44,067 nt of DNA from NCBI RefSeq assembly GCF_004010195.1, contig NC_057718.1:72069469-72113535 (forward strand), written 5' to 3'. Under the pieces are notes generated by a model. It searched no databases. It saw only the letters and a list, made by a program, of their open reading frames with translations, and had not been told where the DNA came from. Every line of letters starts with the position of its first letter. Within the stretch, counting starts at the first letter, position 1. Below, piece by piece: positions 1-22,183 of the stretch. Source of the DNA: Chiloscyllium plagiosum (Eukaryota). A program made the position numbers and the translations under genes.

Positions 1-330
1 ATGCAGGTCGCTGACGTCACTGGGGGCGGAAGTAGCTGCGGCGACCACGGAGACAGAGTTCTTCCCCGTAGCCGCGGAGGTCGACAATCTGTTGGCGATT
101 GTCTTCATGACGATCGCAGAGCAGGTTGTCTGTGCGGCGATCCTGGAGGCGGTTGTTTGGGCCGCGATCATGAAGGTTGCGAGGTCGGTGGGGGCGGAAG
201 TGACGTCATCGGCGGCGGCGTCTGCGGCTATTGCCGCGGGCGCTGTAGCGGCCGCGTGTGTAATGGTGCCAGACTGGTTTCGGAGGCCGATGGAGAAACA
301 TTCTCATGATCTACTCTGTCCATGCTTCTC

Positions 331-763
331 AATTTCAGAAACCAACAACAAACTGCCATTTCTAGATGTCACATTAGAGTGAACAGCTAATGGGGAACTT
401 CAAACCAGCGTCTACAGGAAAACAACACATACCAACCAAATTGAACTACAGAAGAAATCACCTCAACATCCACAAATGAAGCTGCGTCAGAACATTATTC
501 GAACGAGTCACCACACACTGGCAGCACAGAGGAACTATGCAGAGCAGAGGAAATCCCCTACACCACTTTTTACCACCCCGAAGAAAAGGAACAGGAGATG
601 GCATCATCAACTCAAGGAAACTTAAACACGTAAATAAAAAAATGGGCCACATCTGGATGAAGTGTGCTTCATCTGGAAGCTCACTGATGATGTTACCTAG
701 TATGGTGATGAACCATCTGAAAAAGAACCTTCCTGTTCAGCAAGCAAACCTACATCCAGAACC
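331..763 (+). mobile_element. Penelope-like (Poseidon-type) fragment: RT C-terminal part plus 3' end with degenerate hammerhead
   Basis: NNKLPFLDV...QTSVYRKTTHT...CVRTLFERV motifs; tail cactgatgatgttacctag...gcaaacctacatcc is shared with 10136-10447 and 20008-20569. Confidence 0.75.
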
Positions 764-769
764 TTATCT

Positions 770-1840
770 ATGACTCATGATTTTATAGATCTCGATAAGG
801 GGAGCACTCAGTCTCCTACGTTCCAGAGGAGAAAGTTGCAGCCTATCCAACCTCTCCTTATAACTCGAGCCTTTCAGCCCAGGTAGCATCCTAATAAATG
901 ATTTCTGTACTCTTTCTAGTTTAATAATATCTTTTCTATAGTTGATCGAGCAAATTGCATGCAGTACTCCAAATATGGCCTCACCAATACTTTGTACAGC
1001 TGCAATAAGATATCCCAACTCCTATACTCAATGCCCTGACCATTGAAAGGAAGCATGCCGAAAGCATCTTTGCACCCTGTCTACTTGTGACTCCACTTTC
1101 AAGGAGCTATGAACTTTTACCCAGAGATCTCTTTGTTCTATAACACTCGCCAAAGCTCCACCATTGACTGTGTAAGCCCTACCCTGGTTTGACCCACTAA
1201 AATTCAACACCTTGCATTTATCTAAATTAAACTCCAACTGCCATTCCTCAGCCTCCTGGCCCAGTTGATCAAGACCTTATGTCATTCCCACATAGCCTTC
1301 TTCACTGTCCACGATACCACCACTCGAAGTCATCTGCAAACTTATTAACTATACCTCCTAAATTCTCATCTAAATCATTTACATAAATGACAAATATCAG
1401 TGGACCCAGCATTAATCCCTGTGGTACATCATTGGGCACAGGCCTCCAATCTAAATAACAGCTCTCTACCACCACCCTCTGTCTTCTATCATCAAGCCAA
1501 ATTTGTATCCAAATGGCTAGCTCTCCCTGAATCCTGTGAGATTCAACCTTACTCAACAATCTGCCATGCTGCACTTCATCAAAGGCCTTAGTAAAATCCA
1601 CGTTGATTACATCTCCCACACTGCCCTCATCTACTTCTTTGGTCACCCCTTCAAAACTCTCGTTCAAATCTGAGTCTCAATTTCCCACACAAAGTCATGT
1701 TGTTTATCCCTACTCAGTCCTTGCCTCTCCAAATGTCTGTAGATCCTGATCCTCAATCCACTCTAACAACTTGCCCACTTTCACATTAGGCTTACCAGTC
1801 TGCAGGTCCTAAGCATTTTCCTACAACCTTTCTTAAATTA
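770..1840 (-). mobile_element. CR1 LINE ORF2 (RT) fragment, decayed
   Basis: DFTKAFDEVQH, VPQGLMLGPLIF, KFADD, MEFNLDKCKVL, LERVQKSFIRMLPGL on the minus strand. Confidence 0.92.
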
Positions 1841-1930
1841 TGATTTGGAGATGCCGGTGTTGGACTGGGGTGTACAAAGTTAAAAATCACGCAACACCAG
1901 GTTATAGTCCAACAGGTTTAATTGGAAGCA

Positions 1931-1965
1931 CACTAGCTTTCAGAGCAATGCTCCTTCATCAGGTG
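1931..1965 (-). ncRNA. Minimal hammerhead ribozyme (Penelope pLTR)
   Basis: Reverse complement: CAC-CUGAUGA-aggagcauugcucu-GAA-AGCU-A-GUG. Confidence 0.75.
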
Positions 1966-2173
1966 ATAGTGGAGGGCTCGATCGTAACACAGAATTTATA
2001 GCAAAAATTTACAGTGTGATGTAACTGAAATTATACATTGAAAAATTGATTGTCTGTTAAGCCTTTCATCTGTTAGAATACAGTGATAGTTTCACTTCTT
2101 TCATGTGTAAATCACAAAACCTTTTTTTAAAGTTGCATTCTCGGGTTAATTGTTAACAATGGTGATAGCTAGA

Positions 2174-2766
2174 TCTTCCCCTGCCACCACAGGAACTGCA
2201 AAACCTGCGCCCACACCCCCTCCCTCACCTCCATCCAAGGCTCTAAAGGAGCCTTCCACATCCAAAGTTTTACCTGCACATCCACTAATATCATTTATTG
2301 TATCTGTTGTTCCCGATGCGGTCTCCTCTACATTGGGGAGACTGGACACCTCCTAGTAGAGCGCTTTAGGGAACATCTCTGAGACACCCGCACCAATCAC
2401 CCACACCGCCCCGTGGCCCAACATTTCAACTCCCCCTCCCACTCTGCCGAGGACATGGAGGTCCTGGACCTCGTTCACTGCCGCTCCCTCACCACCAGAC
2501 GCCTGGAGGAAGAACGCCTCATCTTCCACCTCGGAACACTTCAACCCCAGGGCTACAATGTGGACTTCAACAGTTTCCTCATTTCCCTTTCCCCCACCTC
2601 ACCCTAGTTCCAAACTTCCAGCTCAGCAGTGTCCCCATGACTTGCCCTACCTGCCTATCTTCTTTTCCACCTATCCACTCCACCCTACTCCCACCCCCGA
2701 CCTATCACCTTCATTCCCTCCCCCACTCACCTATTGTACTCTATGCTACTTTCTCCCCACCCCCAC
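2174..2766 (+). mobile_element. Second Penelope family: GIY-YIG C-terminal fragment
   Basis: FPCHHRNCKTC, IIYCICCSRCGLLYIGET, RFREH, VAQHFNS, RRLEEERLIFHLGTLQP, then a pyrimidine-rich 3' UTR running into the N-gap. Confidence 0.85.
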
Positions 2767-3482
2767 NNNNNNNNNNNNNNNNNNNNNNNNNNNNNNNNNN
2801 NNNNNNNNNNNNNNNNNNNNNNNNNNNNNNNNNNNNNNNNNNNNNNNNNNNNNNNNNNNNNNNNNNNNNNNNNNNNNNNNNNNNNNNNNNNNNNNNNNNN
2901 NNNNNNNNNNNNNNNNNNNNNNNNNNNNNNNNNNNNNNNNNNNNNNNNNNNNNNNNNNNNNNNNNNNNNNNNNNNNNNNNNNNNNNNNNNNNNNNNNNNN
3001 NNNNNNNNNNNNNNNNNNNNNNNNNNNNNNNNNNNNNNNNNNNNNNNNNNNNNNNNNNNNNNNNNNNNNNNNNNNNNNNNNNNNNNNNNNNNNNNNNNNN
3101 NNNNNNNNNNNNNNNNNNNNNNNNNNNNNNNNNNNNNNNNNNNNNNNNNNNNNNNNNNNNNNNNNNNNNNNNNNNNNNNNNNNNNNNNNNNNNNNNNNNN
3201 NNNNNNNNNNNNNNNNNNNNNNNNNNNNNNNNNNNNNNNNNNNNNNNNNNNNNNNNNNNNNNNNNNNNNNNNNNNNNNNNNNNNNNNNNNNNNNNNNNNN
3301 NNNNNNNNNNNNNNNNNNNNNNNNNNNNNNNNNNNNNNNNNNNNNNNNNNNNNNNNNNNNNNNNNNNNNNNNNNNNNNNNNNNNNNNNNNNNNNNNNNNN
3401 NNNNNNNNNNNNNNNNNNNNNNNNNNNNNNNNNNNNNNNNNNNNNNNNNNNNNNNNNNNNNNNNNNNNNNNNNNNNNNNNNN
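2767..3482. other. Assembly gap
   Basis: N run. Confidence 0.99.
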
Positions 3483-6049
3483 GCATCTCCAAATCATGAC
3501 TACTATCGACACCACTAACCGCCAGCTTAAAGTGGAGAGGATCTCCAAGAAGATTGCACATATCGACACAGACATGAAGATTCTACAGGAATGCAGGCAA
3601 GCAGGAAAGATCCCGAAAGGATTACGGATCACGAACCCACTTAGGTCGACCTATAACACAGACTATGCAGAGAGACTTTGCCACCGCACCTCTCGTAAAC
3701 TCCTCAATCATCTCATGCACCAACTCTACAGCAGGCGCCACAACCTTGAAATTCAGATGGAGTCCACACTCTCAGCCTGCACACAGGATACATCAGTACA
3801 ATTATGTGACATTGCCAAACAGACAAGGCGACAAAACTACACCACGTACATGCACACCAAGAACAAAAGACTGGAGAAACTTGGCATTCTCACCAGTAAT
3901 AGCCCTGGAACCACAGTAGACAACATTATCACTGCGAGGAAGTCTACTGTCAACTTATCGGACCACATCCTTCGACCGGAAGAGATTGAAGTCCTGAGTA
4001 GAGGTCTCAACTTCTGCCCCACCACTAAAATGGACCCGTTGGTTCTGGCAGCAGACACAGAGGAGTTCATCAGATGAATGAGACTCCGAGAATTCTTTCA
4101 AGGTGCCGGCAGTGATCCCACTGATGAACTGGAACAGTCATCACAGGGATCTGTAGAAGAGCGACCAAAGGTGGTGTCAACATGGACCCCACTGGAGGGC
4201 CGCTGCCCTGGGCTTGATATGTATGCTCAAATTGTCGGGAAATATATAAATGCCAGATTCATCAGCCGTACCCACAAGGTAGAGCAAAACATCACCCGTT
4301 CACAACGCAATACCATCCAGGCTCTCAAAACCAATCACAACATTGTCATCAAACCAGCAGATAAAGGAGGAGCCATTGTCATTCAGAATAGAACAGATTA
4401 CTGCAAGGAAGTGTACCAACAACTGAACAACCAGGAACACTACAGGCAACTACCAGCTGATCCGACCAAAGAACACACCCGAGAATGAAACACACTGACC
4501 AGAACTTTGGATCCAGTCCTTCAGAGTTCCCTACGCGCCCTCATCCCACGTACTTCTCGTGTAGGCGATTTCTGCTGCCTTCCAAAGGTACACAAAGCCA
4601 AAAGTAGTGTCGGGCAATGGGACCCTATGTGAGAATCTCTCCGGCTATGTGGAAGGCATCTTGAAACCTATTGTACAGGCGATCTCCAGCTTCTGTCGCG
4701 ACACTACGGATTTCTTACAGAAACTCAGCACCCATGGACCAGTTGAACCGGGAACATTCCTCGTCACAATGGACGTTCCCACACTCTACACCAGCATCCC
4801 CCACAATGATGGCATCACGGCAACAGCCTCAGTACTCAACACCAACAACTGCCAGTCTCCAAACACCATCCTACAACTCATCCGCTTTATCCTCGATCAC
4901 GTCTTCACCTTTGACAACCAATTCTTCATCCAGACACACGGAACAGCCATGGGGACCAAATTTTCACCCCAATATGCCAACATTTTTATGCACAGGTTCG
5001 AACAAGACTTCTTCTCTATGCACGATCCCCAACCAACATTGTACACCAGGTACACTGACGACATTTTCGTCCTCTGGACCCATGGCAAGGAGTCACTGAT
5101 AAAACTACACAGTGACATCAGCAAGTTTCATCCCACCATCAAACTCACCATGGACTACTCTCGACTATCTGTCTCATTCTTGGACACATATGTTTCCATC
5201 AAGGATGGACACCTCAGCACCACACTCTACCGCAAACCCACAGGCAACCTCACAATGCTACACTTCTCCAGCTTCCACCCAAAACATATTAAAACAGTCA
5301 TTCCCTATGGACAAGCCCTACGCATACACCGGATCTGCTCAGATGAGGAGGAACGTGACGTACTCAAGGCTGCCCTCACAAGAACGGGGTACGATGCTCA
5401 ACTCATTGACCGCCAGTTCCGTGCTGCAACTGACAGGGTACCCTTCGTTGTTCAGTACTTCCCAGGAGCTGAAAAATTACGCCATGTTCTTCGTGACCTG
5501 CAACACATTATCAATGAGAATGAGCACCTCACCAAGACCTTCCCCACACCTCCACTACTTGCCTTTAAACAACCGCCAAACCTCAAACAGATCATTGTTC
5601 GCAGCAAACTGCCCAGCTCTCAGGACAACTCCATACAACCCTGTCACGGTGGACGCTGCAAGACGTGTCAGATTGTGGACATAGATACCACTATTACCTC
5701 CCACCTTGTACATGGCAGGTACTCATGTGACTCAGCCAACGTTGTCTATCTTATACGTTGCAGGCAAGAATGCCTGGAGGCATGGTACATTAGGGAAACC
5801 GAGCAAAGGCTATGACAACGGATGAATGGGCACCGCACAACAAACAACAGACAGGAGGGTTCCCTCCCAGTTGGGGAACACTTCAGTGGTCCAGGACATT
5901 CAGCCTCGGACCTTTGGGTGACCATCCTCCAAGGTGGACTTCGGGACAGGCAGCAGAGGAAAGTGGCCGAGCACAGGCTGATAGCTACGTTCGGTACCCA
6001 TACGGAGGGCCTCAACTGGGACCTTGGGTTCATGTCACATTACAGGTGA
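3483..6049 (+). pseudogene. Penelope RT + GIY-YIG endonuclease ORF, disrupted by stops and a frameshift
   Basis: LSRGLNFCP, IKPADKGGAIV, GTAMG, YTRYTDDIF, LYRKP, Cys linker PCHGGRCKTC, VVYLIRC...WYIRET (GIY-YIG), RMNGHR, GLN. Confidence 0.92.
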
Positions 6050-6059
6050 TCACCATTGC

Positions 6060-6193
6060 ACTACACACACACTGTCACATACACACGGACACAGGTACAC
6101 ATAGACACGCACACAGACACCCACACACACCCTTATAGACACACACACTCCCACATGCACCCCCTCACAGACTTAAGACACTCTGCACTCACT

Positions 6194-6225
<32 letters not shown>

Positions 6226-6295
6226 TCACTTTCTCACACTCACAACCCCCACCCCAGACAGACACATACACAGACAAAGACCCACATGCACACAT
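6060..6295 (+). repeat. CA-rich microsatellite in Penelope 3' UTR
   Basis: (CA)n tracts, pure run at ~6194-6220. Confidence 0.9.
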
Positions 6296-6657
6296 ATATT
6301 TTGTGGGGTGAATTTGTATTTGCAGAGTTACATTGTACTTTGCTCAAAAACTGCATGAGTTTATGTAACACTCTGTCATCTCACTTTTTAGATTAGAATC
6401 AATCTAAACATCATGGCATAGACAGAGAACACGGGGGCCAACACCTTCAACATATTGTCTAGCTATCACCATTGTTAACAATTAACCCGAGAATGCAACT
6501 TTAAAAAAAAGGTTTTGTGATTTACACATGAAAGAAGTGAAACTATCACTAACAGTTGAAAGGCTTAACAGACAATCAATTTTTCAATGTATAACTTCAG
6601 TTACATGACACTAAATTTTTGCTATAAATTCTGTGTTATGAAGGAGCCCTCCACTAT

Positions 6658-6692
6658 CACCTGATGAAGGAGCGTTGCTCTGAAAGCTAGTG
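6658..6692 (+). ncRNA. Minimal hammerhead ribozyme (Penelope pLTR)
   Basis: CAC-CUGAUGA-aggagcguugcucu-GAA-AGCU-A-GUG: core boxes, stem I CAC/GUG, palindromic stem III. Confidence 0.8.
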
Positions 6693-6726
6693 TGCTTCCA
6701 ATTAAACCTGTTGGACTATAACCTGG

Positions 6727-7478
6727 TGTTGGGGAGATTTCACTGCGGTGTTTAATGTAGGGCTAGGGAGGGTGACACTTCCAGCCCTGAAATGGTTAAC
6801 AACAGCCAAGCGAGCTGCTGCAGGCGATTGCATGACTGCTGGAGCTTGTAAGGGATATGCATAATGTTAATTAAATCTTGGAGCCTGTAAATACCAGCCA
6901 GTATCAATTGCCCCATCGAAACTCGGGATTAATAAAGAAACTGATCGGAATCTGTAACTGTTAGACAAGTGTGAATTGCTCTATCGGAACCTGTAACTAG
7001 TGAGTTTGAATGGCTCTATTTAAGTCTAAAGTTGATAAGTGTAATTGACAATTTAGTTAAACTAAAACTATTGAAAATGGCTAGCCTGTCAGACGCATAG
7101 TAATTCCTTGACACAATGGACTATTGAATACGGGATCGGAACCGCTCCCAGGGATGGTTGAGCCATTGTCAAGCACAGCAGGAGCTGGACAGGCACTTCG
7201 ATGCGGCCAATAGGAGGACGGATCCCCAGCGCGCGCAGATGAATGGACCAATGGGGAAGGCGAACTGACCGGGGACTCCAGGCAGCGCGAAGTATAATTG
7301 TGTCAACTTTGAACGGGAAGGGAGAACGCCTTCTCCAACGAATGCATGCTTGTAGATTCGTTGTATCAGTTAAGATTCTGTGAATAAACTGCTGTCTGCG
7401 TCTAATCATAGTTGCCAGTGTGAGTCTCTCCTTCCAAAAGAACACGCAAAGACGGGACCCTCCGGGTCCGTCTTAACA
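6727..7478 (+). mobile_element. Putative solo LTR of an unidentified family
   Basis: TGTT...AACA termini, internal short direct repeats (ggagcttgtaa/ggagcctgtaa; atcggaatctgtaact/atcggaacctgtaact), two CCAAT boxes, TATA-like site ~7292, AATAAA at 7383. No short TSD. Confidence 0.65.
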
Positions 7479-7494
7479 TTGAGCCCTCCACTAT

Positions 7495-7529
7495 CACCTG
7501 ATGAAGGAGCGTTGCTCTGAAAGCTAGTG
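7495..7529 (+). ncRNA. Minimal hammerhead ribozyme, identical duplicate of 6658-6692
   Basis: Same 35-nt motif inside an 87-nt direct repeat. Confidence 0.8.
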
Positions 7530-7677
7530 TGCTTCCAATTAAACCTGTTGGACTATAACCTGGTGTTGTGTGATTTTTAACTTTCTTAAATTAAATACTC
7601 TTGTTGTTTCCCTCAAATTCTACTTGATGCTCTTATTCGAGTTTGAATTAATTTTCACACTGTACTTTGCATGGGAA

Positions 7678-8218
7678 TGAGATATTAAAGAGTTAATTTG
7701 TTCTGCTGACCTGCAAGAAATTGAATACCCTGGGGGCAGGATGAGATTTCTGTTCTAGAGGTAGAATTTAAGTGATTTTGCATTGTAATTCCTTACCATT
7801 CAGAGCATTTGTATCATCATCACCTATTCAGAAGTCAACTGGAACATTACAATTGAAATTCTGACTGCACCCTACAGTTACAAAAAAACACAATTCACAC
7901 CAGATCTGGCCATTAAGGAATGATTTGCGTTGTACTGTTTCTGGAAATGATGTGGTCACTAAATTGTGTTTTGAGGGGCATGTAACTGTGGGTTTAGATT
8001 AGATTAGATTACATTACATTAGATTGTCTTGTGGGCATTACTGACTGTGATGTAAAGATTTTATATAAAGGAAGGACTGTTCCTTTGTTCAGGGAAACCA
8101 CTCGACATGCTTCTCAAGCTTACTGTACTGACTTAATAAAATTTGGCTGTTGTTCACAGAAGTTGGTGTATTGCAGTTGCATCAAGTGTGAAAGAATGTC
8201 AGGAAAAATAACTTAACA
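7678..8218 (+). mobile_element. Solo LTR of class I ERV family
   Basis: TG...CA termini, alignable to LTR 11580-12182, flanked by 4-bp TSD GGAA (7674-7677, 8219-8222), no PBS after it. Confidence 0.85.
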
Positions 8219-8329
8219 GGAAGGCCTCATAAACAATGCCTGGATGAAATTTTATTTGGCAGCTCATCTGAAATTGTGGATGTTCAAATAAACGAAGCAC
8301 ATGACCTGCCCACCAACTACAAACAGTGT

Positions 8330-8640
8330 CTCCCATTTGATTTATTTTTGGTGATTTCAGATGACAAATTAGATGTGAAGGTATGCTGTGAACAGGATGC
8401 CAAGAATTTACAGCATGATTTGAACAACGTGCGAGAGTGTACATACAATATAGAAGCAGGCCTTTCAGCCCACCATGTTAATGCCGACCAACAAATACCA
8501 AAATATAACAATCCCAATTACCTGCACTTGGTACATAACCTACGACGCTTTGGCATTTTACATATTCATCCAAATGCTTCTTAAATGTTGCATGAGTTCA
8601 TGCCTCCACCACCATTTCAGTAAACATGTTTTATATATTT
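8330..8640. mobile_element. Old CR1 fragments (RT piece on +, 3' tail on -)
   Basis: ISDDKLDVKVCCEQDAKNLQHDL resembles the CR1 FADDTKL...LQ.DL region; the 8450-8640 stretch resembles a CR1 3' end in reverse. Confidence 0.55.
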
Positions 8641-10135
8641 ATCACTGATAGACTGTCTTTATACTGATACCCACCTTGGCAAGGAGGGAATGAGTAATAT
8701 CATATTGTGTACCTGATGGCACCTCCGGTTGAGGCAGGCCAAAAGCATGTCAGATCATGTTCAACATGTCAGCAAAACAATGCCGTTCAAGGGGTACACT
8801 GCATAACAGGGAGAACACCCTTGCCAGGAGGTAAATTTGAATGTATCCAGCTTGATTTCATTTAACTGCCACGTTGTTATAAGTATTGTCTTTTTATTAT
8901 TGACATATTTAGTAGATGGATTGAAGCCTTTCTGATCACTAATAATAAAGCCTCAACAGTGGTAAAATTACTCCTGACCGAGATCATACAGAGGTTTGGA
9001 GTGCCTCGGCAGCTTAGTTCAGACAATGGCCCCCACTTTGTGGCTTGTTGTTGAGTTTCCCTATGTGAGGCACTGCATATCCAGCAGCAATTCCATTGCG
9101 CTTATCACCCTCTGGTGGCAGGAATAGGGGCAAGAGCAAACTGGATTCTTAAAACCAAACTGACTAAGTTAATGTCTGAAACAGGCCTTGCCTTTAGCCC
9201 TGTATCACATGACGCTTACCCCATACTCGACCACTACACTATCAGCAGCAGGAATAATTTATGACTGAACCAGTAGGAACCCTTGGGATGCAAACACAGA
9301 CCCACCCACCCACGTAAACTTAAATATTATGGGAGATGAAATGCAGAGATACTTTCAGCAGCTAACATCGCTGCTGAAGTTTCTCCACTCATGGGTAAAG
9401 CACGCCTTCGGACCACCAATGGATCAAAATTCAGATGACCAGAGCGAGCCCCCCAGACCATAAACAGGAGAACTCATGCTGATCAAGCTTGGACACAGAT
9501 GGAAAATATCATTCCAGATGCTCCTGTAGACACCAATGACAAAGTCCAAGGACAGAGTCGCTCACTCCACCTGACTGACTGTAAACGATGGTCCCCTCAA
9601 GTAGTCTAAAGACTACACTTACAGTCTACATTAGGCCTAGAGGACAATTTGTTTTATAAGACACACACTTTTGCATGGTAATTGAACTGTGTGTTACCCA
9701 TTTGCCCAGTCAGTAGAGACAGCATTTGTAGCCATTCTTGGGTGGACCTCCCCCTCAAGCTATACAGCACAGATACTTCAAACACCCGCTGTATTGGTCA
9801 AAGCTGGAAGTTTATAAGGATGTCATCGGGACAGTGCATAGAGCTGATAAATTCAGATAAGACTCAGTCCCCTAGCTGCACAGGGACGCGGGGAAGATAT
9901 GGTACAACTTGCTATGATCCTATTAGCTATCCACTTTGCTTGTCAGGACGGGGGGCCTGTCCTTACGCTTTGGTTCCCACAAATACCTTGTGCCCAAAAG
10001 CAATGTGTGCATAGGACTGCCAGGTGTGCAATGGAATATTCACCTGAATCTGTGACAAGGAACTGCAGGAAGGCAGTTCATTAGTGGGCATTGCAATGGA
10101 ACCCATGTGAGCTCAGCCTTGGGTCATATCCTTTC

Positions 10136-10447
10136 TTTGGATGTAGGTTTGCTCGCTGAGCTGGAAGGTTTGTTTTCAAACGTTTAATCAACATACCAGG
10201 TAACATCTTCAGTGAGCCTCTAATGAAGCACTCATGGTGTAGCCTGCTTTCTATTTATATGTTTAAGTTTCCTTGAGTCAAATATATAAATAGAAAACAG
10301 GCTTCACCACCAGTGCTTCATTCAGAGGTTCACTGAAGATGTTACCTAGTATGGTGACAAAACCTCTGAAAACGAACCTTCCAGCTCAGCAAGCAAACAT
10401 ACATCCAGAACCTCAACCTGAGCTACAAATCTTCTCAAAAGTTGCTA
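10136..10447. mobile_element. Short palindromic Penelope derivative inserted in env
   Basis: 10139-10260 is an imperfect reverse complement of ~10284-10407; each arm has a decayed hammerhead (cactgaagatgttacctag...). Confidence 0.8.
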
Positions 10448-10983
10448 ATATCTTTTTTATGATTACCAATTGATTGGATCAGAAGAAAACTCCAGTCAGG
10501 AGAGAAACTGGAGATATAAACAATTTGCGACTGCCAATAACCAAGTGGTGAAATGCAACATCCGAAAGAGGGCGTGTGTTCCTTCTCAACGGGACCTTCA
10601 CCATGGCCACTCTGACTCTACCCACCCTGTTTGCTGTAGGGACAGTAGGATCACTCACTGTCCCATGCCCACAGAAGGCACCTGCCCACTGCAGAGTAGT
10701 ATCATGAGCTATTGGTCAGGAGTTTTGTGCAGATTGGAAGGATCCAGTGACTCTGGGCTCTTCCCTTGGTCACAGGTTCCTGGGGACATTACCCTCGGGG
10801 ATTAGCAGGAACAATGACAGCAAAGAACTGAAATTACCTCATTTGTTAACCATCCTGGGAAACAGTACAGTGAGGGGACTAGATGCAGTTAATCGGGAAT
10901 TGGCGGAGTTAAGGCTATACACGCAACTGACCAGATATGCAGTAGACTATCTATTGGCCCAACAAGAGGGTGTGTGTACAATA

Positions 10984-11268
10984 GATTAGATTAGATTACT
11001 TTACAGTGTGGAAACAGGCCCTTCGGCCCAACAAGTCCACACCGACCCGCAAACCACCCATACCCCTACATTTACCCCTTACCTAACACTACGGACAATT
11101 TAGCATGGCCAATTCACCTGACCTGCACATCTTTGGAACTGTGGGAGGAAACCGGAGCACCCGGAGGAAACCCACGCAGACACGGGGAGAATGTGCAAAC
11201 TCCACACAGTCAGTCGCCTGAGGCGGGAATTGAACCCGGGTCTCTGGCGCTGTGAGGCAGCAGTGCCC
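10984..11268 (-). mobile_element. HE1-type V-SINE in env TM
   Basis: tRNA-derived head, V-domain, CR1-like tail, (AGATT)n; TSD ACAATA at 10978-10983 and 11269-11274. Confidence 0.93.
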
Positions 11269-12600
11269 ACAATATTACTCCTACAAATGCATCACCCGGG
11301 TTATGGATGAATCATATAGCACAACCCGTGTCATTCAGTCTATTTAGAACCAACTGAATCATTTCAGACAAGGCCATAAGAATGGAGATGGATGGCTACT
11401 GGAAGGATCCTGGGGATTCTATGTACACCATGGGCTAGTGATTTCTGTTATTATAATTACTGTCTATTGTGTGTCAAAAACTTGTTTAAGTACTGGCTGT
11501 AAGATACTTATGAATAAATTGGTAGCACCTTTTTCATCCTCCATCCAAATAGTTCTCATGGAATGATAAAAGGAGGGAATGTAATATTAAAGAGTTAACT
11601 TGCCCTGCTGACCTGCAGGAAATTCGATATCATGAGGCTAGGGTGGGATAACTCCGACTTACAGGTAGATTGTAAGGAAGTTATATTCCCATCTCTTGGC
11701 ATTCATAGCCATTTGCTTGGCCATTTTCTAGTTCTTCACAATCCATTTTACATTGTCATCTCCTACTATTTACATTTTTATCCCCTATTCAGAAAATCAA
11801 TAAGAACATTACAGTTGGAGTTGACTACTTCCTGTAGTTTAAAAAATTGATTTGCAACAGATTTGACCATTAAGGGATGTTTACATTATATTGTTTCTGG
11901 AGAAGGTCTTGAGTCTTGAGTGGCATGTGACTATGGAGGGATAGCTGTGGGTTGTCTTGTAGGCATTACTGACTGTGATGTAAAGATTCTGTATAAAGGT
12001 TGGACTTTTGTTTTGTTCAGGGAGAGCTTTGACACGACTCTGCAAGCCCTGCAAGGTGTGTGTTAGAAGTTCCTCCAGAAAGTTTGTACTGTACTGTGCT
12101 TAATAAAATTTTGCTTGTTCACATAAATTGGTGTTTGCAGTTGCATCATGTGTGTACGAATCTCAGGAAAAAGAACTTAACAGCTCCACATCCTGTCAAA
12201 TAAGGCATACACTTGGACAAAATATTCAGAACGACTCATGTGGATAGATAAGTCTAAATAAGGCACACACTTTGATTCAGAGACTTGTGTATAAAGAGCC
12301 AGAAGAATACACTTTCTTCAGCAACACTTCGAAGATTGATTTTTTAAAGAAGGTACCTTACGTCAGAAGGCATGGTGAAGACCCCGAGCAGAGTTTCAGC
12401 CAGTTGCCAACTCTCCCAGGTAATAATGTTCGGGTTGAGTTGCAGAAAGTGAAAGACAAGAGATTGAGATATCTCCAATAATTAGAAGTATGTATTATTT
12501 GTTTAAATGTTTAATAAATGAATTGTGTTTTATAGCTCTAAGTGTCACCATGTATCTTCATCTATGTACAGTTGTCTCTCAGAGACAGGCAAGCTAATTT

Positions 12601-12618
12601 TGGCGTCCCTTGGTGGGC
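12601..12618 (+). promoter_or_regulatory. Primer-binding site, tRNA-Asn
   Basis: TGGCGTCCCTTGGTGGGC matches 17/18 the complement of the vertebrate tRNA-Asn 3' end (TGGCGTCCCTGGGTGGGC) and sits just after the LTR. Confidence 0.88.
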
Positions 12619-12699
12619 GTCAATAAGAGGGAGCTTTCTTTTACTCCTACATTAGACCAGGTAACTTCAGACTCTTCCAACAACCAGTCTGAGCCTGAA

Positions 12700-14420
12700 T
12701 TAAGAATGCAACTGCCACATATGATGGCCAGGATTAAGTGGGTACCCGGATGGACGAGGTAGAAATTTGGTCGCAAGAAAGACAAAGGACACACTAAAAA
12801 GGTTAGCACTAACAGAGAATGGTGGGTCTAGGGGACTCTAACTGGAGAGGATTTCGCAAATAGTACATGACTGGGAAATGGCCAAAGTACAGTGAGTATA
12901 GTGGTGATACAGGAACTCTTTGGAATACGACAAAGGATGTTTAGGAAAACAGGCACTTTTCAAGTGCAGAAAGCTATTGAAATAGGCTGCATGTTAAAAG
13001 ACTAGGCAGAAAAGCAGCAGCGAATGCGGAGTCTGCGAACACAGGTAACCGAGCATAGAGAAGAGATAAACAAACTGACTGAGAAGGTAGGGATTTTAAA
13101 AAACCAGACAGATACAGAAATCATGCCTGTGAGCCAGTATCAAATGCAGTGTGAAAAATTGATTAAGAGAAAAGGACAAAAATAAAGAGGAAACGAGAAA
13201 AAGGGCTCACGTACAGACAGAAGAGCTGAAGGAAGTGTAATGATTTGAAAACACCTGTGAATGTAGTACATAAGGCAGCACAGGAGCGAAAAGGGACCTC
13301 AGGCAATCATATAAAGTCAGATATCTGCACAAAGAGGGATAATATGTATATTTGCGACACGACTCTTTGAGAAGGTATGGGAGGAACCTGGGGAGGTCTA
13401 GTAGATGAAGTAGCCAGATATGGAAAGAAAGACCCAGGGGAATGGCGTCCCTCTCTGGATGGAGGGCAGGGGAAAGATCTATTCCCCAATAGTCCCCCGA
13501 TCACTAGGAGACAACAGACAGTAGTCTCAGAGAGCAACAATAACCACCCAACATCACATATACCACCTCTTAAGAGTTCAACAGCTAAGAAACATAGCCA
13601 TAGGGGATTATCAGTTAGGCAACGAACCCTGGGAGCTGTCCCAAGTACCGAACCGTACATGGGTTAGATAATAAGGAGAAGAAGAAACTAATACTGATGT
13701 ATCTCCATCCCAATACACATTCAGCTTTGCCAGAGCCACAGAATGCACCAGCGGGACATCAGGCAAGTTAAGGGAGGCCATGGGAGCTAATAGAGAGGAC
13801 TCAGTGGACGCCCTGAATAAGTGCAGACGGAGGAAAGTAAAGCATTCAAGTGTGTTTGCTGCAAGGCTATACGTATCGCTGCAGAGTGTATATGACGCAG
13901 GGCTAACAAAATCTGGCTGCACCTTTTGACAATCGGTGAGTCCATACACTGGCATCCCACGGGCACAGTGTCATTGTAAAAGATCTCTGACAACGTGTAA
14001 ACACACATACATGTGTACGGAGGAAAATGGTCAGAGCTTTAGGAGAAGGAAATGAGAGGGTATAAGTCTCAGAGAGGAAGATTGATATCTCTTAGAGATC
14101 AACAGGCAGCATGAAGAAATTAAAGAAAGGGACCAGTCCCAACGGGAATACTAGTGCCTATCAAATGGTTGTGAGGGGGCATGAAATGGATGATGAGCCC
14201 TGCTCATGGTCACAGGGAGTGGTAGGGGGTCATGAAAATGTTTTAATTGCGGGAAAGGGCACTATGACAGAGATTGTCCAAAGCCCTGGAGGTGCAGAGC
14301 AAAACAGATCCAGGTCCAACTCTTGCCATAAGAGGGCCCAGTCCATGCCACAGAATTGAGTCCAAGTGGGTTGTACTCCAATCCTCAATGACAGTCTCAG
14401 ACCTCTCAAATATGGATGCG
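12700..14420 (+). pseudogene. gag-like region with N-terminal coiled coil, heavily disrupted
   Basis: Lies between PBS and protease; heptad-like RMRSLRTQVTEHREKINKLTEKVGILKNQ at ~13021-13110. Boundaries approximate. Confidence 0.55.
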
Positions 14421-16779
14421 TGATGCAACATAGGATGGGACAGGGAGGCCCTTAGTGGATGGTAGGGTTGGAGGCCACCCTATCACTTTCCTTTGGGACA
14501 TGAGAGATCCCGCACCACCCTGAACATATCTGCTGTAAACAGGTGACGATTGGAAAATAGAAACAGAAATAATCTTGAGTGTAAAGAAGGACATGTGACT
14601 CGCCCTTTAAATAGACACGGAGGAGGGGTCGGGTTGATGCACGTGATAGTATTTAGAAAACTCCCAGCAAATCGACAGCATATCCTGGGAAATGATTATA
14701 TGGCCACAGCAGGACTGTGCTTTGGCCCAGTGAACTGCATGAGGTGGCAAATGCCAGGAATAAGTGAGTAGTTTTTTTGTTGAAATCCTTGCAGGACAGT
14801 AGAAGGAGAGCACGTGCCTGGTGGGAGAAATATGGACTTGAACGAGGACCTGGTAGTACAAAGATTATTGGACAAAACCAGAAAGCGTTTCCCAAACATG
14901 ACTGTGGACAGATGCAAGAGGTGGTGTGCATTCAGGCCCAGATCCAAAGCCCCAAAAGCAGTATGGATTCCCCAAGTAGGTGGAAGGTGATACAGAAATA
15001 GTAGTAGAAAGACTGGTAGTACAAGGGATGTTAAGGCAAATCGTCTCTACGAACAATTCACTTTTGGCCGTTAAAGAATCCAATTGACTATTGATTATCG
15101 AAAAATAAATAACACCCTTAACAGCATGGTTACTAGCCCCGAAACCATGATTAAACAGAGTGAATCTGCACAGTGGTTTACAGTCCTGATATAAGTAATA
15201 GATTTGGTCAATCCCCCTTGTCCAAGGAGTGTCAGTATAAAATTGCATTTACCCTTAAAGGACAGCAATATATGTGGATAGCTTTGCCACAGCCATTTCA
15301 CAACTCCCCCTCAATGGTTAAGTAATGGTTTGCAGGACTTTTCTAGGCCAGACTGCCTCATACAGTATGTTGAAGGTTTCTGTTTGCAGAAGTAAATCAA
15401 TCAGGAGCATGATCAGCTCCTGAAATGAGTTGTTGCAACTTACTAAAGAAGCTTGGGTTAAAAATGAATCCAAAAAAGGTTCAGATAACGAGGCAGCAAG
15501 TGAGTTGCTTAGGAGTGGTGTTAACACCAGAAAAAAAAAGAGAGCTAGACAAATAAAGAATTGAAACAGCAGCTAGACTCCCTATCCCCACAAATGAGAA
15601 GTGATTAAAGATTTTTTGGGGGGGCTTGATTGGGTATTTACAGAGACTATATTGATGATTTTGTCACAAAGGCAGCACCACTAATGATATTACTGAAGAA
15701 AAATGCCACATGGGAATGGAAGCCAGTACACACAAGCAATAACAGTTTTGAAAAGAGGTTTGGCGATTGCTCCTGCCCAAAAAAATCTCAAATCCAGCTA
15801 AACTATTTTCCATGGAGAATGCTGCAACGGAGTTCACAATATCAGTGATCTTATTGCAGAGGTACATGGTCAGTTGAGACCAGCAGCTTATGTATCACGC
15901 ACACTCATGCCCAGTATATCAAGTGCACATGGCATGCAAAAGGCATTTATTGGCAATATTCTGGGTAGTACATTTTACCTACTTAGATGGTTGAACCCAT
16001 TGACAATTTTGCCAGAACATGCATCCATTCAGATGTTGCTGGATGGACGTATGGCACAGCGAGCCAAAACAGAATTGCTAGATGGATGCTGTTATTACAA
16101 GGGAGGAATATAGAGGTAAAAAACTGTAAAAAAAAAAATAACTTAATTTACCAGGAGACACCCCATGAGTGAAAGGTGGTGATAGCAAATGATTCCAATT
16201 GTATCAAAACGAGAAAGGAGGAAATACCGGTAAACAGAAGACAGAGAATACCCAAGACAAGAGAGAGAAAGAGACTGAAACAGGAGAAAATAAAGAGAAA
16301 AACAAATCACTCTTAAAAATGTTTGTTGACGGCTTTTTTTCTGTCCAGGTTGGAGAATGGAGAACTAGTTGTACTATCTACATGGCAGATGAGCTAGGGT
16401 GAGAAGTGGATAGTATAGCCCTCAATTTGCCAAAGGCCATGAGTGCTCAAGCAGCTGAGTTGGCAGCAGTGGCATATATATGTGAGATAACCAGATAAAT
16501 TCACCTAGAATCTATTATCTATTCAGAAAGTATGTACATGTGCAACAGTTTGATGGACTACCTATCCTTGTAAAAGGCTAGATGCTTTGCATTGACAGAT
16601 GGGAAGGTCCTACCTTCCACCTCAATGCTGAGATACATTTTTGAAAAGGTGCAAGGGAAAGAATGTAGAGTCATGAAAGTGATACTTCGCCACAAAGGCA
16701 GCACTACGAATGATGTTAGTGAAGAAAAATACTAAAGAAAATGATTCAAAATTATCACTAGAGGGAAATAGAAAGGCAG

Positions 16780-16912
16780 GCGAAAGTGAGGACTGCAAAT
16801 GCTGGAGATCAGAATCAAGATTAGAGTGGTGCTGGAAAAGCACAGCAGGTCAGGCAGCATCCAAGGAGAAGAAAAATTGATGTTTCGGGCAGGAGATTTT
16901 CTTGCTCCTCAG
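16780..16912. mobile_element. Short Penelope pLTR insertion splitting the RNase H GNRKA-D motif
   Basis: gctggaaaagcacagcaggtcaggcagcatcc motif shared with 22378-22470. Confidence 0.7.
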
Positions 16913-17724
16913 ATGAATTAGCCAAATGAAGGACAATAGCTGGAGGAGAATGGCAGCTGCAGATGGAGAACACAGGAGCATAGAAATAGAAAGAAGCAGC
17001 CCCAATCGAATTAACAGGAGAACAAAGGAAGCATAGAGAATTATAAAAAAAATTAGTAGGACAGGAGTCAGAGGAATACAAGGAATGAAAAGGCATACAT
17101 GTAAAAGAGGGAGCCATATTATGTGAAGGAAATCTTGGAGTACCATCGAGATAAAGTAATCAGATGATTTATTAGTACCACCATGTATATGGACACCAAG
17201 AGTTGGAAAACACCTTGGAGCGGTTGAAGGAATGAAAGGGGACATGGAACATCATGTGAAAAATTGCTTGATGTGCAAAAAATAACCCCGACAAAAATGT
17301 AAAGAAGGCATTCCTTAGACACATAAGGCCAGTAGAGAGGCCCTGGACAAATTTATAAATAGACTTTATGAGTCCCCTATTCCCAGCTATGGGACGATAG
17401 AAGTGTATTCTGGTGATAGTAGATCCTTCACCAAATGGGTAGAGAAATGTTTCATTCAAAATGATACTGCTAAAATCATAGCAAAAGTCTTGTTAGAAAA
17501 TGATTTTACTTGTTGGGATTTACCAAGGAGGGTTGAGTCAAATCAAAGGACACATTTTAAAGCCCAGGTGATGCAGAATGTCATGACACTGCTAGGGATA
17601 AAACAAAGGTTCCAGATATTCAGTAGGCTACAGTCCAGTCGGATAGTCAAAAAGAATTAATTGAACCTTGAAGACAATGTTGGCCAAAATGGTGCAGCAG
17701 TAGCAGACCACTTGGGTGACAGTG

Positions 17725-18043
17725 ATTAGATTAGATTAGATTACATTACAGTGTGGAAACAGGCCCTTCGGCCCAACAAGTCCACACCGACCCGCCGAAG
17801 CAAACCCACCCATACCCCTACATTTACCCCTTACCTAACACTACGGGTAATTTAGCATGGCCAATTCACCTGACCCTGCACATCTTTGGACTGTGGGAGG
17901 AAACCGGAGCACCCGGAGGAAACCCACGCAGACACGGGGAGAACGTGCAAACTCCACACAGTCAGTCGCCTGAGGCGGGAATTGAACCCGGATCTCTGGC
18001 GCTGTGAGGCAACAGTGCTAACCATTGTGCCACCGTGCCGCCC
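17725..18043 (-). mobile_element. HE1-type V-SINE in integrase
   Basis: Full SINE; TSD ACAGTG at 17719-17724 and 18044-18049. Confidence 0.95.
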
Positions 18044-18579
18044 ACAGTGCTTCCTTATGTCCTAATGATAATAAGAACTGTAGTTTCCTTTACAAAATTT
18101 ACCCCTTAAAGTTTGATGACGGGTCGAGTGATATATGACCTGGAGTCACTGATAGGATTAGATCTGTCTGAACCAGAAGTAGATGGAATAATGAAAGATA
18201 GGTGGGTACAACGGCTGTTTGAGAGTGTAAAAGAAATGAACTCATATCATTTGCAGCCATGGAGAAGGAAGAAACATCAAAGTCAGGTCCACTTTGGTTC
18301 CAAGACAAAGCCAAAGGGGTCAGATGGACTCCTCCGGCTCACCAATAGAAATGAAAATGAAGGAAAAAGGAAAAGGGCAAAAAATAAAATCGATAAAACA
18401 TTTACTCGCCAACCAAAATGGATGAGGTGAAGGGATGGAAGGAAGGCTAGAATCAGCACATGAATTGGCTGAGGGTATGAAGACATTAGCACTATAAATA
18501 CAATAAAAGGAATAAAATCAGATTGACTGCACATAACAGCAGAAACTACATTTGTTTTGTATGAAGAATCACCATAAAA

Positions 18580-19550
18580 TCATGGAAGATCATTACCATT
18601 GTTTTCATTGGAATAAGGATCCTTTCCAGTGAATACTTTGACTGATATTTTTTAATGAATGGGAGGGGCAACATTAGTTGTTGTGAGTGGCACATATTAC
18701 AAATTCAAACAAATGTCATGGTAATGGTCACATGTTGGCAAGAAATGTGGGTTTTTGTGTTGCCATGGCCTGTCCCTGGACATTAGAACCCTACTTTCAA
18801 ATCTTTGCTCCAGTGGCCAAGAAAGCAGCATTATCAGTTACACGGTCTGTGAAAAAATTAATTCACAGGTGACTTGAAAGGTTCAAGGAAAAATTTCCTT
18901 TGGGTCGAAAATTATGTGTACTTGGATTTTTCTCAAATATGCCTTAGTCAGAGATACCGATTATGTCGCCACAGCAGCCTCAGGATAGGTTGTGGTGTAC
19001 CTCAAATGAACAGAATGTGGCAATCAGCAATATCTCTTCTGACTTGACCATTAGCCACAAAGTTATGTTTAACCCAGAACCCAAAGAGAAACTGCGCACA
19101 ACTCTACACATCCACCCAAATGAGACAGACGACAATTTACAATGATTTGCAGCAATGGAATTTCCACTTATTCCACACCACTGCAGATTGGGTAAAGATC
19201 ATTTCTGAGGCAAAGGAAGATATCCATAAATGGGCTATGCACGAGATGGAAATTAAAACTCATGTTGAGGAGGCAATTAGGACTTACAGGTTCCAAGCTT
19301 CGAGAGTAAAGTTTGGGAATTGGGGACTGAACTGTCAGGTCCATCCGTAGATCAGAATTGTGTCTCATGTGATTGTTAGATTACAATTTGTTATACTTAT
19401 TGTTGTGATAGTCTTATTTTGTTTGTGAAAAAGCAAAGTTAAGAAACGGAAGGGACTGACAACAAGGATTGGTCTCAGATACCAAAAAGATAGCTCATAT
19501 AGAAGAGAGTTTGTAATGGTTACTTATTATAGGGTAGGAATATTGTAAAC
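18580..19550 (+). pseudogene. env-like membrane protein remnant
   Basis: Follows IN; helical DWVKIISEAKEDIHKWAMHEMEIKTHVEEAI, then hydrophobic IRIVSHVIVRLQFVILIVVIVLFCL and basic tail KSKVKKRKG. Confidence 0.6.
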
Positions 19551-20047
19551 ATAGCTAGTTAATAGTCTTTCCTACTATTTGTTCTTTACATTGATATCAT
19601 GCATATCTTAGAAGATATGATTTGGAGATGTCAGTGTTAGACTGGGGTGTACAAAGTTAAAAATCACACAACACCTGGTTATAGTCCAACTGATCTATTT
19701 AGAAGCATTAGATTTCAGAGCGCTGCTCCTTCATCAGGTGGTCCTTTCCCATTCCTCCACTTCTCGCCTTCAAACAACCACCAAACCTCAAGCAGATCAT
19801 TGTCCTGAAAGCTGGGCAGTTTGCTACAAACAACGTCATACAACCATATCACGATAGACACTGCAAGATGTGCAAGTGTCTCAACACGGATACCACCATT
19901 ACACGTTGGGACACCTCCCACTGTGTACGTGGTAGGTACTCATGCAATTCAGCCAATGTTGTCTATTTTTACACTGCAGGCAAGGATTCCCTGAGGCATG
20001 ATACATTTAGGGTGTAGGTTTGCTCGCTGAGCTATAGGTTTGATATC

Positions 20048-20085
20048 CAGACGTTTCATTACTTGGCTAGGTAACATCATCAGTG
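20048..20085 (-). ncRNA. Minimal hammerhead ribozyme
   Basis: Reverse complement: CA-CUGAUGA-uguuaccuagccaaguaau-GAA-ACGU-C-UG (GUC cleavage triplet, palindromic ACGU). Confidence 0.75.
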
Positions 20086-20259
20086 GCGACCTCCAAGTAA
20101 AGCGAAACTGTTGTCTCCTGCTTTCTATTTATAGGTTTGTCCTGGATGGGGTTCCTGGGGTTTGTGGTGATGTCATTTCCTGTTCATTTTCTGAGGGGTT
20201 GATAGATGGTATCTAGATCTGTGTTGTGGTTCTGTTCGCCGAGCTGGAAGTTTTTGTTG

Positions 20260-20297
20260 CAAACGTTTCGTCCCCTGGCTAGGCGACATCATCAGTG
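20260..20297 (-). ncRNA. Minimal hammerhead ribozyme
   Basis: Reverse complement: CA-CUGAUGA-ugucgccuagccaggggac-GAA-ACGU-U-UG. Confidence 0.7.
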
Positions 20298-21652
20298 CTT
20301 GGGAGCCTCCTGTGAAGCGCTTCTTTGATGTTTCCTCCGGTGTTTATAGTGGTCTGTCCCTGCCGCTTCCGGTTGTCAGTTTCAGCTGTCCGCTGTAGTG
20401 GTTGGTATATTGGGTCCAGGTCGATGTGTTTGTTGATGGAGTTTGTGGATGAAGCACTGATGATGTTACCTAGCCAGGTAATGAAATGTCTGGATATCAA
20501 ACCTATAGCTTAGCGAGCAAACCTACACCCTAAACCTCAACCTGAGCTACAAACCTTCACAAACCTTGGATGATACATTGGAGAGACCGAGAAGAGGCTA
20601 CAGCAACAGATGAATGGGTACCACACAACAATCAACAGACAGGAGAGTTCCGTCCCAGTCGCAGAACACTTTAGTGATCGGGACATTCAACCTCGGACCT
20701 TCGGGTGACCATCCTCCAAGGGACTGGCAACAACGCAAAGTGGCCGAATAGAGAATGATAGCCAAGTTCAGTACCCATGGGAATGGCCTCAACCGGGACC
20801 TCGGGTTCATGTCACACTACAGGTGACCCGAATGCACTACACACACTACATACATACACACACGCACTCCTACAGACCCTCTCTCATATGCTCACACATA
20901 CACTCCTGCACACATCCTCTCACAGACTTTTATCCCTTTACACTCACACACAAGTTTGTGGGTTGAATTTGTACTTGTAGAATTACATTTTATTTTGCTC
21001 AAAAACTGCATGAATCCATGTAAGATTCCATAAATCTGTTTTGTTAGATTAGAATCAGTCTGAACATTGTGGCACAGACAGTCTCACATAGGGCACCTCA
21101 CACCTTCAAAGCATTATCTGAGCCAACATGACACCAATTGTTAAAGTTCACATGAGAATGTAACTTTAAAAAAAGTTCTGTAATTTACATAAGAACTGGA
21201 ACCAACATGCTCATCCTAAAAGATGAGAGACTTAACTAAAAATCCAGGTCTTTTTCAATATATAATTTCAGTTACATCATACTGTAACTTTTGCTATAAA
21301 TTGTGTCTTATAATCTTATACTTCACAACCACCTGATGAAGGGCTCCGAAAGCTAGTGCTTCCAAATAAACCTGTTGGACTGTAATCTGGTGTTACGTGA
21401 TTTTTACAAGATATGGACAATATATTTGTGCGAAGTGAAACGGATTTGTAATTTTGTTTATGCAATGTCTATAGTTTTGAGAAATATAATGATCTAAATG
21501 GCATTTCAGACTGCACAGCAGAAGTAATGCTACATTGAGCAGACATTGCTGTAAGGGGCTAATGCTCACCACTGTCTGGAGGTGTCCTGGAAGATGTAGA
21601 AAACTAAGTAGAGATGATCCTCAGATAAATCTTTGGGTCAGAAGAGGGGAGA

Positions 21653-22183
21653 TGTTGGATAAGGCTGAAGATGACAGGAACAGATAATAGGCTTAACAAT
21701 GGACTGTTTTTATGTGAATGGAACGTGAATGAATCATGCTGGTATGCCAACAGTTAAAACTGCAGGAAACCAGTAACTGCTGTCTCTACCAGATAAGCCA
21801 TGTATTTGGACAAAATATTTGTGATCGCTCACATGCATAGATTAGTCCAAATAAGGCATACACTTGGCACAGAGACTTGTGCATAAACAGCCTTTGTTCA
21901 GCAACACTTCAAAGATTCACATTGTAAGAAGGTACCACATGGTGGTACCACAAGGCATGGTGAGGACGCCACGCAGAGTTTCAGCCTGGCCAACGGCCAA
22001 CTCTCCCAGGTAATAACATTTGGACTTGTTTATGGACATCAGAGTAGTGAAAGACAATATCTTTAATGTCAAAAGTGTGTTTCTGGTCAAGTAATGAATA
22101 AATTAATAGTGTTTTATAGAGCTCTAAATCTCTCCGATGCATCTTCATCAATGCATGTACTGTTGCCTCAGAGACGGGCAACA
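21653..22183 (+). repeat. 3' LTR of the Loki/spuma-like provirus
   Basis: TGTTG...CAACA termini, directly after PPT, AATAAA ~22098, homologous to 12183-12594. Confidence 0.88.

Follow-up and report, generated by a model that had tools for sequence, protein, structure and literature searches.

We asked what kind of retrovirus left the element at positions 12183..22183 of a 44,067-nucleotide stretch of the Chiloscyllium plagiosum genome (the window), which a first-pass annotation, made from the letters alone, had read as a lokiretrovirus (Loki) or foamy-like provirus with two RNase H (RH) domains. Analysis of the sequence indicated that 12183..22183 is a provirus, long dead, that an ancient family of elasmobranch retroviruses left in the germ line, in the order long terminal repeat (LTR) remnant, primer-binding site (PBS), gag, protease, reverse transcriptase (RT), two RH domains, integrase (IN), env remnant, polypurine tract (PPT) and LTR. 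The family is, with good confidence, an Ovex1-related unclassified basal endogenous retrovirus (ERV) and belongs neither to class I or class II nor to Loki or the strict spumaviruses.

The second RH of the provirus, used as a query, found five proteins among 1.8 billion; the matches included RH-like open reading frames (ORFs) from basking and white sharks (56%), a metagenomic piece and a whale-shark piece, and also a frog 'NYNRIN-like' Pol and a class I-like frog Pol. A frog Pol query retrieved intact Pols of frogs, turtle, ostrich and coelacanth, teleost Loki-type Pols and many Gypsy Pols. The blastx sums of the window were 330-405 against the frog, turtle, ostrich and coelacanth Pols and at most 129 against the Loki-type rows. 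The RT piece of the window, which is broken and a weak query, yielded 0 homologues from 101 candidates.

Two RT trees were constructed, the first using LG+G4 and 58 rows and the second using a mixture model and 45 rows with class II added. Most Gypsy matches were omitted, as were near-duplicates among the viral records and copies without the domain; the foamy, gamma, epsilon, beta, lenti and snakehead retrovirus (SnRV)-like references were viral records whose genus labels came from motifs, lengths and tree position. The LG+G4 tree showed that Loki formed its own branch (99/97) while all other retroviruses, the family included, were joined at 100/98. The family clustered with the 'NYNRIN-like' Pol clade in both trees (92/94 with LG+G4, 97/93 with the mixture model), the class I and II rows formed a branch of their own in the mixture-model tree (97/97), and two starred branches lay between the family RT and the 8-11 Gypsy rows. 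The first-pass description of a deep-branching retrovirus with a tether and a new RNase H, not Ty3/Gypsy, was upheld. Approximately unbiased (AU) tests rejected the grouping of the family with Loki (p=4.8e-5) and with four mammalian-type foamy rows (p=4.5e-4), two groups that were set from the first-pass annotation; the wider clade gave p=0.03 with Loki and p=0.36 with foamy, these groups having been named after the tree was seen. Among the retrieved proteins the ostrich P0027 alone carries the three RH and IN motifs quoted for Ovex1 in PMC2717909.

Several points weigh against this placement. The support of 92/94 in the LG+G4 tree is below the threshold for a star, and the trees held no rows for Ovex1, SpeV, ERV-L, ERV4, CmiERV-I, fish or amphibian foamy-like ERVs (FLERVs), published shark foamy ERVs or Odin. 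The four Loki rows were labelled by likeness to published Loki Pol text, although one protein, P0030, is a close match to a published teleost Loki Pol and supports these labels. The combined RT+RH+IN tree put the three shark families in a basal polytomy that also took in rows from foamy viruses, ostrich, frog and coelacanth, neither the IN tree (a polytomy with no CGIN1 row) nor the RH tree recovered the NYNRIN-like clade, and the RH was loosely associated (84/90) with the RH of Loki and foamy viruses. Of the RT, RH and IN phylogeny proposed at the first pass, RT gave the placement; the IN and RH trees did not resolve the deep branches.

The features of the provirus are as follows.

12183..12597, plus strand: remnant of the 5' LTR that lacks its first ~130 bases; over 423 columns it is 70% alike to the 3' LTR
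12601..12618, plus strand: PBS for tRNA-Asn(GTT), 17 of 18 bases matching the tRNA 3' end
12706..14350 (ends approximate), plus strand: decayed gag region, N-terminal coiled coil at ~13000-13230, CCHC zinc knuckle at 14239-14277
14434..14770, plus strand: decayed aspartic protease, 5' of the RT, FLWD at 14488 (FLWDTG in sister copy L026)
14938..15713, plus strand: RT, 45% identical to P0026, 7 frameshifts, 4 stops, catalytic motif degenerate
15736..16166, plus strand: tether, the first, Ty3-like RH, 44% identical to P0026, 5 frameshifts, usual catalytic motif absent
16316..16781, plus strand: second, retroviral-type RH, 3 stops, ~55-bp internal duplication
16782..16903, no strand assigned: short inserted repeat matching repeats at 22386 and 34645, absent from sister copies, where it shows as a coverage gap
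17090..18315, plus strand: IN, HHCC and core, 46% identical to P0026, 2 frameshifts, 5 stops, split by a short interspersed element (SINE)
17727..18045, minus strand: the SINE inside IN, up to 96% alike to other copies in the window, absent from sister proviruses
18580..19506, plus strand: env remnant, hydrophobic N-terminus at 18586, membrane-proximal helix, transmembrane (TM) anchor at 19399-19425
19616..21406, no strand assigned: block of nested insertions in the untranslated 3' part, made of repeats that match others in the window, absent from sister copies
21640..21652, plus strand: PPT, a purine run directly 5' of the LTR, also in L025, L056, L136 and L137
21653..22183, plus strand: 3' LTR, 531 bp, TGTTG...CAACA, behind the purine tract

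Every gene of the provirus is broken, as counted in frameshifts and stops against the intact relative P0026. This copy is unable to encode any protein and has undergone three insertions and two deletions since integration. The Pfam matches on the window followed the order RVT_1 (E 3.8e-5, below the curated cut-off), RT_RNaseH_2 on the tether (E 0.011, weak), RNase_H on the second RH (E 8.5e-6, above the cut-off) and Integrase_H2C2 (E 0.077, weak). The gag coiled coil gave only weak coiled-coil matches and the protease gave no Pfam match; apart from the Pol and coiled-coil matches, 13 of the 19 scanned pieces returned no family or unrelated weak ones. The motifs quoted at the first pass were located in the expected domains: FLWD, PKPQKQYGFP at 14944, QQYMWIALPQPFHNSP at 15263, PAAYVSRTL at 15880, RHLLAIFW at 15941, FVDG at 16322 and SAQAAEL at 16442. 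GNRKAD was present as GNRKA at 16764, its final D being non-contiguous with an insert next to it. The 531-bp LTR, the PPT and the Asn PBS were likewise borne out. Features beyond that annotation are the CCHC knuckle at 14239, 4-bp target duplications and a central env deletion.

The second RH is 56% identical to basking-shark P0001, and its positions 16686-16743 repeat RT 15665-15704 (90% over 40 bp), a local post-insertion duplication that sister copies lack. The IN C-terminus has lost ~350 bp in the window (328-363 bp, from six sister copies), a deletion which removes the GPY-type motif found in natural frames of sisters L022 and L025. The Gag of the window scored 38-59 against five intact Gags and 32-57 when shuffled, with nothing beyond the knuckle and no capsid domain demonstrated. 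The distance from knuckle to protease was a multiple of three in both copies that carry the two motifs, too few to call stop read-through. Among the genomic tRNA loci matching the PBS, ARAGORN called tRNA-Asn in two of the three scanned; the match to tRNA-Asn(GTT) in sister copies was 17/18 in L022, 15 in L021 and 14 in L027. The spacer between LTR end and PBS was ~5-6 bases in L022, L026, L027 and L134, and 12597-12601 is the same region in the window; in orthoretroviruses it is usually 2 bases. The target duplication is 4 bp: in 20 of 29 LTR copies, those with intact ends, the flanks agreed at 62% of positions (5/20 exact), against 19-31% for duplications of 3, 5, 6 or 7 bp in the same copies.

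The TM-bearing 3' ORF of the first-pass annotation proved to be an env remnant which does hold a TM anchor but lacks its central ~1.1 kb near 18925, a size taken from L012, L022, L025 and L027. The sister copies have a furin-type basic cleavage site, behind which come a hydrophobic stretch rich in Gly and Ala and heptad-like helices. Window positions 19076-19506 aligned to residues 565-710 of the intact shark Env P0143 with a score of 107 vs 31-46 for eight shuffles, and the sister env region matched the env of a younger family of this genome at 21-25% identity, with a best E of about 1e-7. Intact Env homologues of this younger family gave 15 matches in four shark genera (Chiloscyllium, Mustelus, Pristiophorus and Heterodontus). 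A profile of 13 shark Envs matched seven family loci (best independent E-value, iE, 1.5e-9) as well as two further families, B and C; at iE<0.05 it matched none of the controls, which were foamy, gamma, epsilon and SnRV sequences. The Atlas language-model features placed P0143 with clusters of Gypsy-Env, Baculo_F and Fusion_gly at 0.91-0.94, the number of features in common being 198-208. An immunosuppressive-domain (ISD) motif was found in 0/7 family copies and in 2/2 gamma controls, and CX6CC-like strings occurred in three family copies only outside the env-matching frame. The family Env is likely an F-type (paramyxovirus-like) class I fusion protein, a fold that we infer from these resemblances. 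Evidence to the contrary was as follows: shuffled proteins reached 0.9 in the Atlas in 4-10 of 100 cases; the env remnant of the window had no match to the 13-Env profile at iE<0.05; Pfam found no fusion family and no PF00523 in seven sister env pieces and the intact homologue; a sequence search of the PDB with the env profile gave 0 matches at E<=10; and an AlphaFold model of P0143 from a 13-row alignment had a pLDDT confidence score of 29.6 and was unusable.

A much younger ERV family, 'D' (L075, L127, L144 and L151-L153), has stop-free frames of 300-900 aa, a CCHC gag and, by language-model features, an F-type env; its RT may belong either with SnRV or with class I.

Among the alternatives, the one that survives best is a broad foamy-like ERV, in which the whole clade, like CmiFLERV and XtrFLERV (PMC5512871), is sister to or a basal part of the foamy viruses; we consider it unlikely. 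The AU test of the wider clade with foamy, the basal polytomy of the RT+RH+IN tree and the loose RH association agree with it. The family shares with foamy viruses and FLERVs a PQKQY RT start, a WD-type protease motif, a loosely related RH and, probably, an F-like Env, the last described for foamy in PMC11468914 (see also PMC5512871 and PMC10699275). Priming by tRNA-Asn is also described for a FLERV of newts, and a published cluster of frog and shark FLERVs may be the same group (PMC5512871). On the contrary, both RT trees put foamy outside, on a separate long branch (90/89 and 85/88, unstarred), the family was rejected as a partner of the mammalian foamy rows, and the RH text of teleost FLERVs looks different. 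Once the nested insert is set aside, ~350 nt separate the end of env from the PPT, which leaves no room for accessory genes such as the bel genes that foamy viruses carry between env and 3' LTR (PMC5512871). These genes and the long LTRs of foamy viruses are absent from the family, and 6 of the 21 family copies examined still show a CCHC knuckle. Foamy Gag is not known to have a Cys-His box. Membership of the strict Spumaretrovirinae was rejected on the RT position, the knuckle and the short env-PPT interval.

Quite improbable is a second alternative, that two proviruses, or two pieces wrongly joined in the assembly, make up the locus, in which case LTR divergence would not date a single insertion. 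The paired LTRs reported at the first pass were both found, the 5' one only as a remnant. The two LTRs are 70% alike with gaps and 81% without, and their Kimura two-parameter (K2P) distance of 0.222 over 373 ungapped columns is only just below the 0.224-0.24 that separates them from other family LTRs; moreover, the 5' end is missing together with its target duplication. The absent first ~130 bases were searched for in window positions 1-12200 and not found. However, the two LTRs were mutual nearest neighbours among 27 LTR sequences, the gene order is collinear with that of sister copies, and the runs of one sequencing study, not marked as the source study, contained 79-81% of the pol words. 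A ~600-bp TG...CA LTR of another, younger family, at 11581-12182, adjoins and truncates the 5' LTR; it had 44 genome matches, mostly 76-84% identical (best 40 of 1215 candidates), and a more distant second copy lies near 7673-8219.

A lokiretrovirus of cartilaginous fishes, the identity favoured at the first pass, is very improbable. Dual RH, a Ty3-like tether and a coiled-coil N-terminus are traits that Loki shares with the family, as are, probably, an F-like env with an RxKR site and an IN of the NYNRIN/CGIN1 type (PMC7947760); Loki INs were among the better-scoring references for the window, and the env layout resembles the Loki-Xtr Env by eye. The Loki reading of the first pass fits the tether, the IN type and the probable env type but not the RT position, by which Loki is defined, since the family RT lies inside the retroviruses proper and Loki outside. 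The tether and second RH are common to all retroviruses and so are not diagnostic for Loki. The RT motifs also differ: published Loki RTs carry PFGY in at least 92 places of the available PMC7947760 supplement, in which the FHNSP motif of the family occurs 0 times. The family has a CCHC knuckle and the Loki Bik-1 Gag a Gly-rich patch. According to the same source at least five chondrichthyan genomes were screened for Loki, one order being positive in 0/3, and the host list in its available text names no cartilaginous fish. A Loki Pol query gave no match above 46% identity in the present genome among the best 42 of 24192 candidates. A Ty3/Gypsy or Odin-like retrotransposon with independent gains of a second RH and an F-type env can be dismissed as extremely improbable, because the RT lies two starred branches away from the Gypsy rows (Odin was not among the rows), even though the top Atlas cluster for the env homologue was Gypsy-Env/Baculo_F and dual RH is reported to have arisen outside retroviruses too.

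Two other memberships were tried and rejected. For class I/II, the RT fell outside the class I/II branch and neither an ISD nor an in-frame CX6CC was found. ERV3 (ERV-L) and ERV4 have 5-bp target duplications, no zinc finger and no GPF/Y motif (Chong 2014 Table 1, PMC4299795), whereas the family has 4-bp duplications, a CCHC knuckle and, in sister copies, a GPY-type motif; no ERV-L or ERV4 row was in the trees. A DIGS screen assigned most cartilaginous-fish ERV RTs to clade III.

Several described systems can be compared with the family, read here as an Ovex1-related basal ERV. Ovex1 and SpeV form a distinct branch near SnRV and spumaviruses (PMC2717909); crocodilian members were added later, and the Ovex1/SnRV-related ERVs were left unclassified, some with a GPY/F motif and/or a zinc finger (PMC4299795). 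With the lineage of Ovex1, SpeV and CrocERV37-39 the family has in common an RT clade with the ostrich Pol that bears Ovex1 motifs (97/93), a tether and RH, and an env-like third ORF without ISD or CX6CC. Ovex1 itself is a conserved locus of birds, present once and without LTRs, whereas the shark family is multicopy, LTR-bearing and decayed. The env type of Ovex1 is left open in the available text of PMC2717909.

CmiERV lineage I of the elephant shark, placed beside SnRV (Han 2015, PMC4422223), resembles the family by eye in its cartilaginous-fish host, its coiled-coil gag with a CCHC knuckle and its TG...CA LTRs, and its RT, tether and RH motifs are shared with P0024 of the family's clade. 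It differs, also by eye, in a gamma-type env (ISD, CX6CC), another PBS and a longer LTR, and is far younger (LTR divergence 0.033 vs 0.22). CmiERV lineage I is probably of the same lineage as the family, and since its env is gamma-type while that of the family is probably F-type, env would have been swapped within the lineage. The first-pass suggestion that the element fills a host gap of Loki did not hold: the nearest named relative is Ovex1, CmiERV lineage I has the same Pol type by eye, and cartilaginous fishes are probably among the hosts from which the lineage has been described before. The probable novelty is the pairing of an Ovex1-related Pol lineage with a probable F-type env. The family was not found named in the literature searched; a J Virol paper of 2023 that deals with foamy ERVs of cartilaginous fishes may bear on novelty.

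The SnRV-like record L099 (10,688 nt), which by its length and tree position we take to be snakehead retrovirus, has, like the family, a coiled-coil and CCHC Gag and an Env scoring F-type. Its Env (6131-9532) gave no TLV_coat match and fell with the Baculo_F, Gypsy-Env and Fusion_gly clusters at 0.90-0.92; no prior statement of an F-type SnRV Env was found in the literature searched. Its alignment to the shark Envs by hhalign was weak (E 0.013, probability 3%). SnRV was sister to the clade at 82/84 in one tree and elsewhere apart or polytomous; its RH grouped with class I and its genome is complex.

A single copy is an ordinary genomic fossil and the importance lies in the family. Tentatively, and with the odds somewhat against it, the window family and its two sister families could belong to a basal lineage of retroviruses, found across vertebrates and still without a name, as its first members recognised to have an F-type env; that lineage would keep the ancestral kit, the last common ancestor of retroviruses having had an F-type env and gamma-type Env having come later, in more than one replacement. 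The lineage would then span sharks, chimaera, coelacanth, frogs, turtles and birds, the kit would comprise a Ty3-like tether, a foamy/Loki-type RH, a NYNRIN-type IN and an F-type Env, and CmiERV-I would be one case of gamma-type replacement. Four scenarios for the origin of retroviral Env are left open in the available text of Wang and Han (2021, PMC7947760). If a retrovirus outside both Loki and the foamy viruses has an F-type Env, as SnRV apparently does too, an F-type ancestor with later gamma-type replacement is favoured. Loki, foamy, SnRV and the younger shark family all score F-type. The lineage is filed in databases as 'protein NYNRIN-like' and is still without a formal class.

The family worked like a simple retrovirus with an envelope, several of its parts resembling those of Loki and foamy viruses. 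Its priming site shows that host tRNA-Asn primed reverse transcription; by analogy with known retroviruses the second RH would have removed RNA, the first serving as tether. The PPT primed the plus strand and IN left the 4-bp duplications, as the sequences show. Cutting of Env at the furin-type site seen in sister copies may have freed the fusion peptide of an F-type protein of paramyxovirus, baculovirus or foamy-like fold. Germ-line integration would have been followed by a single old burst, collapse to solo LTRs and neutral decay.

A pol DNA search of the genome (3.56 Gb) gave 53 matches, at about 35 other loci (best 40 of 63 candidates), and sister pol loci were 67-80% identical over longer pieces. 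The 3' LTR had 46 genome matches, mostly 67-75% identical and many full-length (best 40 of 231 candidates). The first 20 sister regions were as decayed as the window copy where examined. LTR pairs across the family had a median K2P of 0.26, and this together with star-like trees suggests that the family amplified in a single old burst, most copies now being solo LTRs in neutral decay. The K2P of 0.22 in the window gives only a loose date, about 50, 220 or 500 Myr with the rates of PMC7947760, PMC10699275 and PMC4422223, the ~500 Myr estimate being implausibly old; CpG observed/expected ratios of 0.26-0.38 in the family indicate CpG decay, which inflates LTR distance. The insertion is at least about 50 Myr and plausibly a few hundred Myr old.

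The genome also harbours B (L124 and L125) and C (L126, L128, L129 and L131), two more families of this lineage that have likewise decayed, and with the window family (A) they formed one branch at 100/99 in the RT+RH+IN tree. The RH tree showed that the lamniform RH ORFs P0001 and P0006 are sister to the window family (100/95), so that more than one order of sharks harbours the lineage, owing either to its age or to transmission. Both ORFs, one from the basking shark and the other from the white shark, are intact over ~200 aa and 93% identical, which may reflect slow decay or co-option. Sequencing runs of two other organisms contained 20-29% of the window pol words, and none of the runs listed with such words was RNA. 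A ~1.2-kb unit with ~180-bp inverted repeats (L157:3207-4451 and L158:5900-7177) carries ~450 bp of family env, 72% identical to L012. The two copies examined were 99% identical and a near-same env match occurred at nine places on different contigs, which looks like capture and spread of env by a younger repeat.

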